The notes beneath the pieces are model-generated. The model had not been told where the DNA came from, ran no database searches, and worked only from the letters and a program-made list of their open reading frames with translations. A DNA stretch of 36,134 nucleotides from a virus (lineage: Duplodnaviria > Caudoviricetes), in the IMG/VR virus record IMGVR_UViG_3300032257_000060, positions 1-36,134 of that record. One strand, given 5' to 3'. Below are positions 128-34,604 of the stretch, piece by piece (position 1 is the stretch's first letter; every line of letters begins with the position of its first letter). Both the position numbers and the translations under genes were made by a program.

Positions 128-504
128 TTGAATTATACCGCTGGTATCACGACGACTGCACTATAGGTAGATTATGCTTTGAAGATTTCCAGTGCTTTAC
201 GCTTGAGCTACCCGACTTAAACAACCAGAGAAATATTAGCTGTATCCCAGAAGGCGTTTATAACTGTCATATATTCAACAGCCAAAAGAACGGAAAAGTA
301 ATCAGCATTGAAGACGTGCCTGGCAGGAGCTACATTCAAATTCATTCAGGCAATTTCACGTCACAAATTGAAGGGTGTATATTGGTTGGCGATTCAATCA
401 AACGGCTAAACGCTGACAACATACCTGATGTAACAAATTCAAAGAAAACACTGTCCGAGCTATTAGCAATAGTTCCGATGAAAACAAAGATAAGTATTTA
501 TTAG
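124..504 (+). CDS. DUF5675-family L,D-peptidase-like protein, putative endolysin
   Basis: CFTLELP...N...SCIPEG.Y and IQIHSGN...IEGCILVG (H..GC catalytic motif); follows the spanins on the circular map. Confidence 0.8.
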   Translation: MIELYRWYHDDCTIGRLCFEDFQCFTLELPDLNNQRNISCIPEGVYNCHIFNSQKNGKVISIEDVPGRSYIQIHSGNFTSQIEGCILVGDSIKRLNADNIPDVTNSKKTLSELLAIVPMKTKISIY

Positions 505-2937: not shown

Positions 2938-3242
2938 AGGTTCAAAGCTGGCCAAGCAGAAAAGGCGCTGCAACTCATTACGAGGTTGATTATAGTGTAT
3001 TAGTTGGAAGATTAGGTACAACTGTTTCAACCGTAACATGGAGCGTGGAAAGCGGAAGCGCCACAATTTCAGGCGAAACACTAGCAAGCGGCGTAGCTTC
3101 AGCGCTAATAACAACCGGATCAGAAGACTGCTCTCTTATTAAGCTAGAGGCAGTATTGGCAGACGGTCAAACAGACGTGTTCTTCTTTAAGATAAAGACA
3201 GAAGACCCAAAATGTGTGCAAAGTACAGCAGGGAGATATTAA
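2934..3242 (+). CDS. Putative fibre/adaptor protein (beta-rich)
   Basis: YEVDYS...TVSTVTWSV pattern seen in phage adaptor-like proteins upstream of terminases. Confidence 0.55.
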   Translation: MKVQSWPSRKGAATHYEVDYSVLVGRLGTTVSTVTWSVESGSATISGETLASGVASALITTGSEDCSLIKLEAVLADGQTDVFFFKIKTEDPKCVQSTAGRY

Positions 3243-3249
3243 TCTAACC

Positions 3250-4404
3250 ATGTACAAATACAAAATGATTAATACGAGCGAATTAAATGGTTATAAAAAT
3301 AATGCCAGGACACACTCGCCTGAGCAAGTAAAACAGATTGCCAGTTCTATCAATGAATTTGGCTTTACTAATCCACTATTAATCAACGATAAGAAAACCA
3401 TTATTGCAGGCCATGGCAGAATAGAGGCTGCACTAACATTGGGAATGGATAAAATTCCTTGCATAATAGTAACAAATCTTACGCTCGACCAAGAGAAAGC
3501 ATTAATCATTGCCGACAATCAACTAGCATTAAACGCAGGGTGGGATTTAGATATACTCAAAGCTGAAATTGACGACTTAAGGCTAAACGATTTCGACGTT
3601 GAGCTATTAGGGTTTGATGATGACTTTATAACCGACCTGCTACAGCCAGAGCCAACAGAAGGGCTAACCGATGAGGATGCTGTTCCTGAAGTGCCAGAAG
3701 AGCCAGTAACCGCGTTAGGCGATATATGGGAGCTAGGTAACCATAGATTAATGTGTGGTGACTCTACCAGTATTGACGCTGTTGAAAAATTAATGGATGG
3801 CGTATATCCCGATTTAATACACACCGATCCTCCGTATGGGATGAATGCTGTCACAAAAAGTGGCGTATTATCAAAGAGCTACAAAACAGATATTATTGGC
3901 GATGATAACACTGATATAGCTAAAGACGCTTTTCGCCTTATAAACGGGATGTATCCTGAATCAAAACAAATATGGTGGGGCGCCAATTATTACTGCTCTG
4001 TTCTGCCTGATAGCGAGTGCTGGCTAGTGTGGGATAAAAACAACGGGCAAAGCGATCAAACTGATTGCGAGCTAGCTTGGGCTAATTTCAGGAGTGTTGT
4101 GGGGCAATTCACGCAAGCAAGCGAAAAAACAAACAGAGTTCATCCAACTCAAAAGCCTGTGTCGTTAATGGAATGGATAATTAAAAGATTCAAATTGTCA
4201 TCAAGTACGATAGCTGATTACTTTGGTGGCAGTGGGTCGACATTGATGGCTGCAGAGAAAAACAATACCAAATCATTTAATATGGAGTACGATCCGAGGT
4301 TCTGCGATGTAATAATCAACAGATGGCAAGATTACACTGGACGTCTAGCCATCCATACGGCTACAGGCAAAACATATTCGGAGTTAAAGAATGACAAAGA
4401 ATAA
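3250..4404 (+). CDS. ParB/Srx N-terminal domain fused to a beta-class N6-A/N4-C DNA methyltransferase
   Basis: NARTHS..QV.QIA.SI.EFGFTNP, IAGHGR, ADN.LA (ParB); HRLMCGDST, TDPPYG, HPTQKP, DYFGGSGST (MTase); start moved to ATG 3250. Confidence 0.92.
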   Translation: MYKYKMINTSELNGYKNNARTHSPEQVKQIASSINEFGFTNPLLINDKKTIIAGHGRIEAALTLGMDKIPCIIVTNLTLDQEKALIIADNQLALNAGWDLDILKAEIDDLRLNDFDVELLGFDDDFITDLLQPEPTEGLTDEDAVPEVPEEPVTALGDIWELGNHRLMCGDSTSIDAVEKLMDGVYPDLIHTDPPYGMNAVTKSGVLSKSYKTDIIGDDNTDIAKDAFRLINGMYPESKQIWWGANYYCSVLPDSECWLVWDKNNGQSDQTDCELAWANFRSVVGQFTQASEKTNRVHPTQKPVSLMEWIIKRFKLSSSTIADYFGGSGSTLMAAEKNNTKSFNMEYDPRFCDVIINRWQDYTGRLAIHTATGKTYSELKNDKE

Positions 4405-27466: not shown

Positions 27467-28021
27467 ATGAAACCAAATAATAAAGGTGTGATAAACCAAG
27501 AAAATCTGATGTCTTTGCTGCACTATAATAAGGTCACCGGAGTGTTTACATGGAGAAAACGTGACGCATCCTTGTTTGCATCAGCACAAGCAGAGAGGAT
27601 GTGGAATAAACGCTACGCAGGGAAGGAGGCAGGAACAGTCCGTCAAGAACCTGGCGGCTATAGGGTTATTCTTATAAATGGAAGAAAATACATGGCTCAT
27701 CGTTTGGCGTGGATGTATGAGTATGGCAAGATTCCAGAAGGGTGTATAGATCACATCAATTGCAATAAATTGGATAATAATATATCAAATCTTCGTGAGT
27801 GTACTATGTCAGAAAACCTAATGAACTCCAAATTAATGCGCGGAACTATGTCTGGGATAAAAGGGGTGCATTTACACAAGCCATCCGGAAGATGGCAGGC
27901 GAGACTTAGGTATGACGGAAAGAATAGGCATGTTGGTAGTTATGGCACAAAAGAGGAGGCGAAAAATGCAATTATTGCCAAGAGAAATGAGGTTCACGGG
28001 GAGTTCGCCAGACATGAGTAA
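27467..28021 (+). CDS. HNH homing endonuclease with an AP2-like domain
   Basis: AHRLAW...IDHINCNKLDNNISNLRE; SGIKGVHL...RWQARL...HGEFAR. Confidence 0.92.
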   Translation: MKPNNKGVINQENLMSLLHYNKVTGVFTWRKRDASLFASAQAERMWNKRYAGKEAGTVRQEPGGYRVILINGRKYMAHRLAWMYEYGKIPEGCIDHINCNKLDNNISNLRECTMSENLMNSKLMRGTMSGIKGVHLHKPSGRWQARLRYDGKNRHVGSYGTKEEAKNAIIAKRNEVHGEFARHE

Positions 28022-28256
28022 AGATATTAACGAAATGACAGAAGCAGAGAAGAATCTTGAGATAGCTAGGTTGGCTTATCCTCAGCATAAAGTATACATT
28101 GTTAAGACGACTGGTGAGGTCAGAGTAGAGGAAGTGTGTCATCAAGGCTTTACTAGGGATATGCGTGTTGACTACTACAAAAACTTGCATGATCTAGCAG
28201 ACTGCCTGTTATTGCTATTGCGCGAGAAAGCAAGGGAGAGTAACGATGAGCGATAA
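28014..28256 (+). CDS. Hypothetical protein
   Basis: Start moved to ATG 28014 (GGGGAG SD) overlapping the end of the HNH gene. Confidence 0.6.
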   Translation: MSKDINEMTEAEKNLEIARLAYPQHKVYIVKTTGEVRVEEVCHQGFTRDMRVDYYKNLHDLADCLLLLLREKARESNDER

Positions 28257-28584
28257 ACCACAACAGGCAACACCCCATAAAAGCTTAATTGATCAAGTTA
28301 TGGATAGTCGTGTGGCTAAAAACGAACGTGAATGGGCTTGTGCTATAGAAATAGAAAAGTTACAAGCCAGAGTGCAAGAGTTAGAAGAAAAAATGAACAT
28401 CACCAATAAGCACGATTTAATTTGGTTAGAGCGACGGGAAGTTAAACGAATCAAAGCTGAAGGGATTGAGGAAATGCTAGAAGATTTGGCAAAAACTCAA
28501 GATGGCAGATATATGATGCTCATCCCTTTAAATCGGATTATTGATTGGAAAAACAAGTTGGAGGTCAACAATGACAACAGCTAA
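28246..28584 (+). CDS. Hypothetical coiled-coil protein
   Basis: KNEREW.CAIEIEKLQARVQELEE; SD present. Confidence 0.7.
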   Translation: MSDKPQQATPHKSLIDQVMDSRVAKNEREWACAIEIEKLQARVQELEEKMNITNKHDLIWLERREVKRIKAEGIEEMLEDLAKTQDGRYMMLIPLNRIIDWKNKLEVNNDNS

Positions 28585-28897
28585 CGCAACAACAGACAGC
28601 ACAGGCAATATGCTTTACTCAGTCAACACAAGTGGCAAGTTTAGAGCGAGGCAATTAACATCTAAAACTATTGGCGTATGGGATTATGTGTTACCCGGTA
28701 AATCAAAAACCGTTCAATTAGTCACATTACTAGGTGATTCAGCCTATGACCTGCTGGCTAGACACATTCACGAAAGCGAGAAAATACCACTAGGCGCAAC
28801 GGTTAATATTAATCGCTCAAGCCGAGTCGTTGAAATCAAGGTTAAGCAAAACAAGCGAGACTATCGATTATTCTCAGGCGCGATATATAGGAAGTGA
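28571..28897 (+). CDS. Hypothetical protein
   Basis: GGAGGT SD before ATG 28571. Confidence 0.65.
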   Translation: MTTANATTDSTGNMLYSVNTSGKFRARQLTSKTIGVWDYVLPGKSKTVQLVTLLGDSAYDLLARHIHESEKIPLGATVNINRSSRVVEIKVKQNKRDYRLFSGAIYRK

Positions 28898-28925
28898 TAT
28901 GAGCAAAATAGCGGGAGGTAAAATA

Positions 28926-29933
28926 ATGCCAGAGGATAAATCAATGAACGTACTAGATTTGTTCTCTGGTATTTGACTCGGAGGCTTCGCATTAGCATCA
29001 CATCCACATGGATTTAAAACAGCAGCATTCTGTGAATACGACAAAGACGCCCAAGCAGTATTGAAAAAGCGATTTCCAGAAGTGCCAATAATTAACGATA
29101 TTAAGGAGTTAGTGTTTTGCCTAGAACATCTAAAAGAAAATCAGATGCTGCCAGAGAAAATCAAAAAAAAGCTGTTGCAGCGAGAGTTAAGAATGGAAAT
29201 GTTGAGTGCGTCTGCAAAAACTGTGGCAAGCAGTTCAACACACCAAAAAGCTACATTGCAAAAGGTGGCGGAAAATTCTGCTCTAACAACTGTCGATATG
29301 TTTTCAAGCGAGGAGACAACGGAGCAAACGCAGGGGGTGGGGCATGGATGCTCGGAGAAAATAACCCCAATTATATTGACGGCAAATCCTCAGAGCGGAA
29401 AGAAGGGCGCGTTAGATACGCAAAAGAACTCAACCAATGGAGAAGAAGGGTTTACGCAAGAGATGGATACCAGTGCCAGGAGTGCGGAATCAAGCCAAGA
29501 AAACAAGGGCAGCTTAACGCCCATCACATCAAGCACTGGGCAACGCACGAATCGTTGCGATTCGATATTAACAACGGAATTACAGTCTGTATTGACTGTC
29601 ACAAAGCAATTCATGCAAGGGGGAATTGATGTCGTCACAGGAGGGTTTCCATGCCAGCCAGCTTCAGTTGCTGGGGCAAGAAAAGGAAGGGAAGATGAGC
29701 GATGGCTCTGGAATGAGATGTTTAGAGTTATACAAATTGCACGTCCAAAATGGGTTATCGGAGAAAATGTATCTGGGCTTATCACGGTTGATGAAGGGCT
29801 GGCATTCGAGAATGTGTGTCTTGACCTGGAAAGAGAAGGTTACACCGTACAAACGCTTATTATTCCAGCTTGTGCCAAAGACGCGCACCACAGAAGAGAC
29901 AGGGTTTGGATTATTGCCCACACCAACATCTAG
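28926..29933 (+). CDS. C5-cytosine DNA methyltransferase, N-terminal (alpha) part with motifs I-VIII; in-frame TGA at 28974 and a ~170-codon insert
   Basis: GGAGGT SD then MPEDKSMNVLDLFSGI*LGGFALA...FCEYD...NDIKEL-[insert]-IDVVTGGFPCQPASVAG...DERWLW...VIGENVSG...HRRDRVWIIA. Confidence 0.85.
29117..29629 (+). CDS. HNH endonuclease with a Zn-ribbon, nested in an alternate frame of the MTase
   Basis: CKNCGKQF...KFCSNNC, GENNPNY, WRRRVYARDGYQCQECG...LNAHHIK...FDINNGITVCIDCHKAIH; AAGGAG SD 8 nt before TTG. Confidence 0.9.
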   Translation: MPRTSKRKSDAARENQKKAVAARVKNGNVECVCKNCGKQFNTPKSYIAKGGGKFCSNNCRYVFKRGDNGANAGGGAWMLGENNPNYIDGKSSERKEGRVRYAKELNQWRRRVYARDGYQCQECGIKPRKQGQLNAHHIKHWATHESLRFDINNGITVCIDCHKAIHARGN

Positions 29934-30423
29934 TGACGGCACATCGGGCGGAGTTATTGGAAAAAATGACACATATTATCAAACATCTGGACTGCCAAGA
30001 AAGATAACGCAAAACGGTGTTGATGGATCGGTTGGACTAGGCAGGCTTGTGCAAATGTGGCCAACACCTAACGCCGGAGACGATAGAGACAGAGGAAATC
30101 TGTCAAATCCTTGTATTCAAAGGCGAAAGGAAATTGGCAAGCAAATCATGTTGAGCCAGTGTGTTAGTGAAGAATCAGGCAGATTAAACCCAGATTGGGT
30201 CGAGCCTCTAATGGGCTATCCAGTCGGCTGGACTGATTTAGAAAAGGATAATGTAACGCATGAGATAACTGAGTTTGTTGGTAATCCTGACGATTCAGGC
30301 GAGCCAAGAGTAACAACTAGATCCGACTTAAGAGCCAAACGACTTAAGCAGCTTGGAAACTCAATAGTTCCACAGGTGGCCAGCGAGATATTTAAAGCAA
30401 TCAGGAGCATAGAAGATGAATAA
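29629..30423 (+). CDS. C5-MTase C-terminal (beta) part: target-recognition region and motifs IX-X
   Basis: LLPTP and WPTP repeats, GRLNPDWVEPLMGYPVGWT, RLKQLGNSIVPQVA; ATG overlaps the HNH stop (TGATG). Confidence 0.85.
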   Translation: MSSQEGFHASQLQLLGQEKEGKMSDGSGMRCLELYKLHVQNGLSEKMYLGLSRLMKGWHSRMCVLTWKEKVTPYKRLLFQLVPKTRTTEETGFGLLPTPTSSDGTSGGVIGKNDTYYQTSGLPRKITQNGVDGSVGLGRLVQMWPTPNAGDDRDRGNLSNPCIQRRKEIGKQIMLSQCVSEESGRLNPDWVEPLMGYPVGWTDLEKDNVTHEITEFVGNPDDSGEPRVTTRSDLRAKRLKQLGNSIVPQVASEIFKAIRSIEDE

Positions 30424-30535
30424 AAGAGAAATTAAAGAATTCAACCGAAGAAACAATTGGAATAAGTTAATCGCTGTGATTGCTGTATGTATCGCTATCA
30501 ATGTATTATTTGGCCATGAATGGTGGACAGGATAA
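30416..30535 (+). CDS. 39-aa single-TM peptide
   Basis: MNKREIKEFNRRNNWNKLIAVIAVCIAINVLFGHEWWTG; AGGAG SD. Confidence 0.6.
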   Translation: MNKREIKEFNRRNNWNKLIAVIAVCIAINVLFGHEWWTG

Positions 30536-30542
30536 TAAACAC

Positions 30543-30572
30543 TTGACACTATAAGCGCATGAGCGTATAGTG
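30543..30572 (+). promoter_or_regulatory. Near-consensus sigma70 promoter with an overlapping palindromic operator
   Basis: TTGACA-17-TATAGT; CACTATA...TATAGTG inverted repeat. Confidence 0.85.
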
Positions 30573-30602
30573 AGTATATAGGTTAATGAGGGAGTAAATA
30601 GC

Positions 30603-30776
30603 ATGACACAGCAAGAGTTTTATGATCTACCAGAAGTTCAGGCGCTAATAAACATTCAAAAAATGAATATGTACGGAAGCGATGCGCACAAGCAAGCGCA
30701 TGGCAAGATTGCAGATGTAGCCAAGAGGGAGGGCGTATTTGAGGAATATAGAGCCTCTGGTGGTTGTGATTATTAA
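30603..30776 (+). CDS. 57-aa hypothetical protein (missed by the ORF track)
   Basis: MTQQEFYDLPEVQALINIQK...GGCDY; GGGAG SD. Confidence 0.7.
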   Translation: MTQQEFYDLPEVQALINIQKMNMYGSDAHKQAHGKIADVAKREGVFEEYRASGGCDY

Positions 30777-30799
30777 TAAATCAATAAAAAGGAGTAAAC

Positions 30800-30991
30800 A
30801 TGAAGCATCAAGTATTTAAACTTCAACAATACGTCGACATCTACCACGACGGCAACAAAGCCTCATTTGGCAGAGAGTTCGGCAGAATGCCTCAGAGCGT
30901 AACGCGCTTGTTCCATAAGCCTGAGCAATGGGCTGTTATCATGGTTAAGCGTAAAGCGCTGTTAGTTCAAATAAGAGGAGAGAGCAAATGA
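30800..30991 (+). CDS. Small Cro-like HTH protein
   Basis: LQQYVDIYHDGNKASFGREFGRMPQSVTRL. Confidence 0.6.
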   Translation: MKHQVFKLQQYVDIYHDGNKASFGREFGRMPQSVTRLFHKPEQWAVIMVKRKALLVQIRGESK

Positions 30992-31485
30992 ATAAAGTAA
31001 CGCTGGAATTAACTGATGAGCAGTTAGCGAAAATACAAAAGATGCTTGCTGATGAGCCTATGTCTACGGGCGTTAGATGGAGGGCTGAGAAAGACAAGAG
31101 GTATTGGCTCATTGACGATTATGGTGATATATTCGGAACCGTAGACATGAGACTTTCATCAGATAATTACAGATACGATATAGGCAACTACTACAAAACA
31201 GAAGATGAAGCCCTTGTCGCTGAGAAGAAACAATTAGCTATGCAGAAAATCTTTGACTACATTGCTAAAGGCGATGCGGAAAAAGGATTGGTTATTGGGC
31301 GGAATAATAAAAGCCAGACAAGATATCGCGTATTTTACGACTCAACTCAGAACGCCTTACTGCTGAGCTATAATCGCTTCATTGTGGAAACAGACCCGCG
31401 CCTCTATGGGCATAAGGACGTTATCGAGCAATCAATAATTGACCTTGAGAGCGAGTATTTGATTTATTTTGGGGTGGAGCGATGA
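30988..31485 (+). CDS. Hypothetical protein
   Basis: RWRAEKDKRYW...DNYRYDIGNYYKTEDEA, a common phage motif. Confidence 0.75.
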   Translation: MNKVTLELTDEQLAKIQKMLADEPMSTGVRWRAEKDKRYWLIDDYGDIFGTVDMRLSSDNYRYDIGNYYKTEDEALVAEKKQLAMQKIFDYIAKGDAEKGLVIGRNNKSQTRYRVFYDSTQNALLLSYNRFIVETDPRLYGHKDVIEQSIIDLESEYLIYFGVER

Positions 31486-33963: not shown

Positions 33964-34001
33964 AACATGCTTATTGGTAATAATAGCTAAAGGTGATAGT
34001 T

Positions 34002-34604
34002 ATGAAAAATTGCATCAAATGCAACACTAGAAAAAAAGAAGAGCAATTCCACAAAGACAGCAGAAGGCCTGACGGTTTATTCCCATACTGCAAAAAATGC
34101 AGGCAAATACCAAGGAAGCCCGCAAAGTGCAGGCCGATTAAAGAAGTTCTTTCTAACTATAGAGTTGCAGAAAACGAGTGTTGGGAATGGAGTGGAACGC
34201 TTGACATAGATGGATATGGCGTTGCCTGCTTCAAGGGGGAGCGGCAAAAAGCCCATAGGCTTAGTTTTTCACACCATGTTGAACCAATTAAGCAGGGCCT
34301 AATTATATGTCACAAATGCGACAATCCTTCCTGTATAAATCCAAATCACTTGTACCAAGGAACAAGCCAAGACAACACTAACGACATGATAGCAAGAAAA
34401 AGGCAAAATCCGCCCATAGGAGAAAGGTCTGGCAATGCGGTTTTGGAAATAGAGCAAGTAAGAGCGATAAAGCACGACCCAAGAAGGCATAATAAAATCG
34501 CTATGGATTACGGAATAGCGGCATCCACTGTAAGTAGCATTAAGACTGGCAGAAACTGGTCGCGCGCATTAGGTGAGGCTGATAGAAATGCGAAAGCAAT
34601 TTAA
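34002..34604 (+). CDS. HNH endonuclease with a Zn-finger N-terminus and HTH C-terminus
   Basis: CIKC...FHKD...CKKC; CWEWSG..DGYG...AHRLSF...CHKCDNPSCINPNHL.QGT..DN.NDM. Confidence 0.92.
   Translation: MKNCIKCNTRKKEEQFHKDSRRPDGLFPYCKKCRQIPRKPAKCRPIKEVLSNYRVAENECWEWSGTLDIDGYGVACFKGERQKAHRLSFSHHVEPIKQGLIICHKCDNPSCINPNHLYQGTSQDNTNDMIARKRQNPPIGERSGNAVLEIEQVRAIKHDPRRHNKIAMDYGIAASTVSSIKTGRNWSRALGEADRNAKAI

Follow-up and report, generated by a model that had tools for sequence, protein, structure and literature searches.

A short coding gap in motif I of phage C5-methyltransferase genes, probably hopped by ribosomes and associated with a homing endonuclease element

A methyltransferase gene with a split motif I and a nested nuclease

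The window, i.e., the whole 36,134-nt (36-kb) stretch of DNA analyzed here, is an entire phage contig with P22-like portal, capsid and terminase genes, and the region is present in two sequencing runs, both labelled as microbial mat metagenome. On its plus strand, a Shine-Dalgarno sequence (GGAGG, 28914-18) precedes an ATG at 28926, from which a frame reading ...DLFSGI*LGGF... extends to 29933 (317 codons after the interruption), with a product matching Pfam DNA_methylase (E 1e-28). The interruption is a TGA CTC (28974-28979) that splits motif I of this C5-methyltransferase, positions 28959-28991 reading TTG TTC TCT GGT ATT TGA CTC GGA GGC TTC GCA. The gene thus consists of a 16-codon, element-supplied leader from the ATG to the Ile codon of motif I (28926..28973, +), which ends on the candidate take-off codon AUU (28971..28973, +), a six-nucleotide coding gap (28974..28979, +) made of the UGA stop (28974-76) and a candidate landing codon CUC (28977-79), and a large-subunit body from the rest of motif I to motif VIII (28980..29933, +). 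The original prediction held that excising exactly these six nucleotides would restore motif I and that all later motifs were intact. The insert is confirmed and its removal does restore the motif, although three registers of removal give the same protein; among the PF00145 motifs, IV (PCQ), VI (ENV) and VIII follow in this frame, whereas motif X lies in an overlapping +1 ORF.

M.HhaI has no residues at the gap site when aligned with the relative L082. TGA terminates 5 of the 15 checked genes of the window genome and is an ordinary stop there, which excludes an alternative genetic code for TGA. Support from the sequencing runs is thin and at contig level: one run, which may be the window's own source, is identical across the insert at a depth of 17, and a contig of a second run stops at 28975, with one informative base of the insert. 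An assembly error, or a change private to this genome, was named beforehand as what would overturn the finding; both are excluded because gaps at the same site recur in many other loci.

A second nuclease gene lies within the methyltransferase body. This nested HNH endonuclease gene (29117..29629, +) uses another frame and its own Shine-Dalgarno sequence (29103-08), and falls between motifs III and IV, with the host frame open through all 170 codons. Its stop overlaps the start of the +1-frame ORF (29626..30423, +; phrog_1008 DNA methyltransferase, E 3e-28), which carries motif X as a small subunit in an EcoHK31I-beta-like layout. The nested HNH is weakly similar to the HNH proteins found upstream of other gap genes (best E 0.002), a related-locus search with it returned six distant loci, two relatives (P0002, P0003) contain homologous shadow peptides at ~40% identity, and in a third (P0004) a duplicated motif IV flanks a comparable insert. 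The nested gene is probably a second, separate insertion, seemingly of another type of nuclease element that targets methyltransferases and persists through frame overlap. The idea that it is the nuclease against which the gap guards is unsupported, given that best E-value and given that P0002-P0004 share the nested insert and P0002 and P0004 are gapless. The overlapping +1 ORF was likewise rejected as a part of the mechanism, since the +1 frame is also open in 104 of 110 gapless controls. In Cr-LKS3 (g59; L391, 887-2737), a gene annotated as an N6/N4 DNA methylase likewise overlies an HNH match, which suggests that the nested-nuclease layout also exists in that methylase class. Elsewhere, the window encodes a ParB-N6/N4 methyltransferase fusion (3214-4404) and two free-standing HNH genes (27467-28021 and 33993-34604), one with an AP2 domain.

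Recurrence of the gap and codon usage at its edges

The proposed homologue search for Ile-stop-x-Gly-Gly worked in modified form: the exact I-TGA-x-GG pattern had no match in viral contigs and a related-locus search with the window methyltransferase found none, whereas wider patterns recovered the family. With six unspecified bases allowed to separate the Ile codon from Gly-Gly, 207 matches were obtained (34 viral, 117 metagenomic and 56 genomic), 33 of which are methyltransferases with a six-nucleotide gap (7 viral, 25 metagenomic and 1 genomic, a count that takes in the window and a few duplicates). The first gap triplet is a stop in 11 and a sense codon in 20 of these 33, apart from L126/L131 (match 301-333, minus strand), which read ATA GGT TGA GGT GGG, i.e., a matched Gly stop-hop (GGU, UGA, GGU) displaced by one codon. 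When gap lengths from 1 to 30 were scanned in viral contigs, the 20 matches comprised 7 at six nucleotides, 11 at five (9 of them methyltransferases), one at one nucleotide and an unrelated one at 30, so that methyltransferases were confined to lengths 5, 6 and, once, 1. A looser five-nucleotide scan added one locus (L387) for a total of 10 five-nucleotide methyltransferase loci, all with TAG or TGA first. Against ~1300 gapless viral stretches, ~1% of such genes would carry a gap, the patterns behind the two counts differing slightly. When other take-off codons were also allowed before a six-nucleotide gap, the 15 viral-contig matches included methyltransferases only with Ile. One match was set aside as a likely indel (L216, one extra G in a G run, no stem), three were not methyltransferases (L220, L232, L227), and L157 (GAG ATC, no stem) is doubtful and was retained in the counts.

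At the protein level, a search with the first 42 residues of L082, a query biased toward one clade, listed 120 hits: 59 with a two-residue insert, 3 with one residue (Ile-Ile), 57 gapless and 1 unscored. The three single-residue cases (P0173, P0175, P0234) have an extra Ile in motif I together with hairpin-type N-termini (see below) and could represent a three-nucleotide gap class; one further protein (P0191) has a Ser-Thr insert (landing ACN). On a poorly resolved quick-search tree (133 rows, 78 columns), the gap is scattered, with 18 changes, at least 4 of them forced by starred branches, a distribution as expected for a mobile or repeatedly lost part.

These inserts could in principle be translated, by stop readthrough or by plain decoding of the sense gaps, the enzyme tolerating two extra residues in motif I, and both the 20 of 33 six-nucleotide gaps that are open and the 59 database proteins with a two-residue insert are in line with this reading. 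UGA readthrough had indeed been offered as the alternative to a hop, and it leaves the out-of-frame class unaccounted for: the 10 five-nucleotide loci, as well as the Gordonia phages Gudmit and Lton described below, change frame. Moreover, the first inserted residue is free (Leu, Arg, Pro, Gln or a stop) and the second is never encoded by NTA or NTG, neither M.HhaI nor 95 scored close homologues have an insert, and where the insert is present it is accompanied by the start-codon hairpin in all cases except L157. We thus consider translation through the gap to be quite unlikely.

The conserved NTY landing codon that had been predicted is borne out, with a second triplet of this form in 31 of 33 six-nucleotide gaps (15 of 16 distinct hexamers), and the final triplet of the five-nucleotide gaps is RYY in 10 of 10. 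The third landing base is U or C without exception (gapless genes use ATA for this Ile in 34 of 114 cases), which fits the requirement of a G34 anticodon. The candidate take-off codon is Ile in all metagenomic and viral gap loci except for the Gly of L126/L131, and the landing codon tracks the take-off codon where the latter changes: Tyr UAU goes with AAC in Gudmit and Lton, and Gly GGU with GGU in L126/L131. The window pair AUU/CUC matches at two of three bases, as in the other loci, a full match being seen only in L126/L131, L135, L225 and the stemless L157, with the mismatch at the first landing base in most loci; one locus combines take-off AUA with landing AUU (L043). A stop follows the take-off codon in 11 of the 33 six-nucleotide loci, among them the window, as well as in L126/L131 and in every five-nucleotide locus; among the sense codons found there, only CUA and UUA are rare (18 and 19 of 269 Leu codons), and CGG, CCA and CAA are common. 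The position of a mini-Shine-Dalgarno sequence, 5-7 nt before the landing codon, is occupied by the Gly codon of motif I (GGC/GGU).

A stop at this site could also release a 14-18 residue peptide complementing a second chain re-initiated at the landing triplet. Split C5-methyltransferases do exist (M.EcoHK31I, PMC2836561), and an overlapping second ORF is already present in the window gene's own family. M.EcoHK31I shares with the window a second chain in an overlapping frame, a likeness with no bearing on the gap, and differs in layout: its beta chain holds motif IX only and its alpha chain keeps motif X, whereas motif X of the window lies in the second ORF (PMC2836561). Against re-initiation, the sense-codon gaps bring no termination and the split would fall inside the glycine loop. 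The landing triplets CUC, GUC, ACC, GCC and AAC are also poor start codons, and we regard this explanation as highly improbable.

The start-codon hairpin, the upstream element and empty sites

In the window, an 18-bp hairpin is predicted between 28925-42 and 28956-73 (28925..28973, +), which would bury the AUG by pairing its region with the D-L-F-S-G-I codons and whose final paired base is the third base of the take-off codon (MFE -28.9 kcal/mol, z -2.98, 3 of 200 shuffles equally good). For a wider comparison, near-copies were removed from 42 gap loci and from the first 120 of the ~1300 gapless genes, leaving 21 and 114. Of the gap loci, 14 of 21 have an uninterrupted helix of at least 7 bp joining a start codon to the Ile codon, vs. 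0 of 114 gapless genes, and a helix of at least 5 bp is present in 19 of 21 vs. 12 of 114. In an alignment of 28 of 43 loci (omitting among others L126, L157, L226 and near-copies), 93% of cells pair and 11 changed on both sides, vs. 2.5 in shuffles (0 of 500 reaching it). The compensatory signal comes mostly from a single column pair (codon 2 base 3 with Ser codon base 3), and in these related sequences pair-count measures were weaker, being reached by 40 and 44 of 500 shuffles. Because the 5' arm of the hairpin encodes them, protein starts of the form M[PSL][ED] are seen in 59 of 59 proteins with a two-residue insert vs. 4 of 57 gapless hits. A covariance model (R1) failed to split gap from gapless genes (held-out L226 at 46.7 bits and L126 at 26.3, gapless up to 43.9) and missed the Gordonia loci. 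L218/L374 retain the 5' arm just upstream of the motif I match with the ATG changed to AAG, and may start at an ATA or a later ATG.

In nearly every locus the stem ends precisely at the 5' edge of the gap, as a processing signal might, and one can imagine the gap being removed from the RNA, whether by a nuclease and ligase acting at the stem end, by a trans-acting ribozyme or by hairpin-driven skipping of RNA polymerase. Several features speak against such removal, which we judge very unlikely: there is no second helix 3' of the gap, the gaps end in U or C rather than in the terminal G of group I introns, and the third-base U/C interchange and the Tyr-linked switch of the middle base fit an anticodon, not a splice site. 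An Rfam search of 28000-31000 gave no match at E up to 1, and with neither a family match nor a terminal G, a group I intron or other Rfam RNA was rejected.

The ORF directly upstream of the gap gene encodes an endonuclease in 22 of the 25 gap loci examined, including one GIY-YIG, and upstream windows of equal length contain an endonuclease in 15 of 25 gap loci vs. 1 of 109 gapless ones. In nine loci an old methyltransferase start (..VLDLFSG) is fused to the N-terminus of the HNH protein, in six further loci the old DLFSG start persists further upstream, and in L377 an intact old start lies at -91. The window has no upstream nuclease; the last 15 bases of the element, the hairpin and the gap remain. 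These bases (28911..28925, +), which include the GGAGG, correspond to the last HNH codons and stop of intact elements, and the 12-16 nt directly before the window ATG are identical to those of 9 of 10 compared elements. Further upstream, an LFSG (28868..28879, +) at the tail of ORF 28541-28897, 106 nt before the gap, probably represents what erosion has left of the methyltransferase's original 5' end, a suggestive, post hoc identification set against a background of 1 hit in 28,743 nt of gapless controls. Among individual loci, a GIY-YIG/HTH protein takes the usual place of the HNH in one (L082, 522-1325), HNH-like pieces are split over two ORFs in another (L043, 832-1755), and a gapless, stemless-looking paralogue occurs in the genome bin of a third (L188). 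When two element junctions were compared by blastn with cultured phages, there were 98 and 6 hits, none covering 80% of the query, and HNH matches in Ralstonia phage YL1, Javan74 and plasmids came with no gap element.

Occupied and empty versions of the site can be compared in cultured Gordonia phages, Gudmit and Lton having been found with one old-start-fused HNH as query. Both carry the HNH, the new start and the gap, reading M-S-E-T-L-R-T-G-S-L-F-S-G-Y, then TGA AC, then G-G-L-D. A stem is predicted on the start region of both (duplex -15.6 and -11.5 vs. -9.1 in gapless relatives). In CheeseTouch and Whitney, motif I is gapless and there is no HNH, i.e., the site is empty. The gene upstream in Lton is common to CheeseTouch and Whitney, and the 94% identity between Lton and CheeseTouch restarts at the second base of the landing triplet; this base and the third are those of the host's original codon, and the landing match may thus be partly inherited rather than selected. 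Gudmit gp58 (L389, 2331-3716) and Lton gp60 (L390, 2193-3323) were deposited with starts that use the downstream frame, so that the encoded proteins lack motif I; a few bases later, in another frame, lies what appears to be the true start.

Whether these genes still function bears on a further explanation, in which the element inactivates the methyltransferase, the gap confers immunity to the nuclease and nothing else, and the gene has no function until it is repaired by recombination. Loss of a phage methyltransferase is often tolerated, and the gap is rare in viral contigs (7 six- and 10 five-nucleotide loci vs. ~1300). Downstream of the gap, dN/dS is 0.07-0.13 in five pairs with a stop in both genes, a value that may predate the arrival of the element, and in the stop-led loci L083 and L219/L375 the methyltransferase frame ends 66 and 72 codons after the gap, through decay, a frameshift or another insertion. 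On the other side, the element rebuilds a Shine-Dalgarno sequence and a start, followed by a leader that is in frame and free of stops; the stem shows covariation; and the window, despite the loss of its nuclease and the erosion of its old start, has kept intact both the 18-bp stem and the frame of 317 codons. This rebuilding, and a stem and frame outlasting the nuclease, are stronger signs of function than dN/dS, and we consider a dead gene unlikely.

A proposed ribosomal hop and its relation to known bypasses

The best reading of these sequences is that a homing element supplies a substitute 5' end to phage C5-methyltransferase genes, and that ribosomes probably hop the five- or six-nucleotide coding gap left in motif I by means of the peptidyl-tRNA. 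The sequences show an HNH gene placed where the original gene began, or fused to that start, and an element that brings its own Shine-Dalgarno sequence, start codon and duplicate of motif I's first half; the gap comes next, and from there the host gene continues. In the proposed hop, the ribosome would have Ile in its P site and, in its A site, either a stop or a sense codon that is read slowly; the start region, by then free, would zip onto the mRNA leaving the ribosome, peptidyl-tRNA-Ile would leave AUU and re-pair two-out-of-three at CUC, and decoding would restart at GGA to give a normal F-x-G-I-G-G loop; the hairpin would also bury the AUG and so hold off a trailing ribosome. The hop is preferred because it is the sole route that covers both frames, the U/C third base and the AAC and GGU landing switches. 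The first-base landing mismatch, the possibly inherited landing bases and the common sense codons count against it, as does the stem reaching the P-site codon, further than a six-nucleotide push requires. The hop first proposed for the window gene is supported, and that proposal had overlooked the start-codon hairpin, the homing-endonuclease element and the sense codons in many six-nucleotide gaps.

By analogy, the methyltransferase gap is likely a miniature counterpart of the T4 gene 60 bypass, working like mobA/gene 60 without being a member of that system. As in T4 gene 39/mobA/gene 60 and its Topo2L homologues (bioRxiv 2022.08.31.505936), a homing nuclease sits in a conserved gene, an element-supplied N-terminus replaces a piece of the host gene (Lton vs. 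CheeseTouch/Whitney; the old DLFSG starts), the gap directly follows the new N-terminus and ends at the landing codon, a stop or rare codon follows take-off in part of the loci (sense in 20 of 33 six-nucleotide methyltransferase gaps), and the gap can outlive an exchange of the nuclease (GIY-YIG in L082) or its loss. The gap likely spoils the target of the element's own nuclease, a role that the gap of gene 60 plays towards MobA. Unlike gene 60, the host is a C5-methyltransferase rather than a topoisomerase II large subunit, the gap is 5-6 nt rather than ~50 nt and often in frame, and landing is usually mismatched at base 1, whereas the gene 60 homologues described there always match. The take-off codon forms the 3' end of an upstream, AUG-containing stem, whereas in gene 60 it is on the take-off stem-loop's 5' side, and the leader of most loci, with 14-18 codons, leaves no room for a KKYK-type signal such as gene 60 has 25-30 residues before take-off. 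Forward drive is presented as the main unsolved problem of gene 60, and pairing of the exiting mRNA has been proposed as its driver (bioRxiv 2024.12.09.627546); the methyltransferase hairpin would fit such a role.

Shorter hops offer closer parallels in length. The title of a paper by Weiss et al. from 1987 reportedly names +5 and +6 shifts. Synthetic stop-hops in E. coli decode nine nucleotides as one residue (PMC5009743), as proposed here and with the same hop lengths; those are laboratory constructs, whereas the methyltransferase gaps are natural, conserved and provided with a dedicated stem, and as of 2016 no natural in-frame stop-hop was known according to the same source. A short bypass in the terminase of Streptomyces phage Hau3 was confirmed by mass spectrometry (PMC10732093), and the byps of Magnusiomyces mitochondria land with two-of-three pairing (PMC5009743). 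Both share with the methyltransferases a short gap and a slow or unused A-site codon, and byps also a relaxed landing; unlike here, no homing nuclease is described in the consulted portions of either source, and the Hau3 bypass depends on UUA, whereas byps rely on mitochondrial ribosomes and seem context-independent. The main text of PMC3711429 contains no such methyltransferase case, and a gap in methyltransferase motif I is undescribed in the literature searched, most subscription journals and bioRxiv supplements being beyond its reach.

Overall, these genes represent a real, widespread and apparently undescribed variant of a cassette that combines a nuclease with a probable bypass, and its gaps are the shortest to date. 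Bench proof of programmed bypassing exists for very few genes. The cultured Lton and Gudmit, together with the near-identical gapless CheeseTouch and Whitney on one laboratory host, form a ready bench system, in which a single covarying hairpin next to a 5-6-nt gap is a far simpler test bed for forward drive than gene 60. On this reading, the gap methyltransferases are mis-annotated, with a wrong start, as pseudogenes or with a false two-residue insert. More broadly, neither an intron nor an intein is needed for a homing nuclease to settle in a conserved motif. It is tempting to speculate, tentatively and with somewhat less than even confidence, that the start-burying hairpin is a minimal portable module that alone drives efficient 3-, 5- and 6-nt hops in several bacterial phyla, with no need for a nascent-peptide signal, a matched landing or a stop. 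If so, this would be the first natural in-frame stop-hop, the efficiency of hopping would be tied to the rate of initiation such that the methyltransferase is throttled, and homing nucleases could colonize a conserved motif near the start of any gene.
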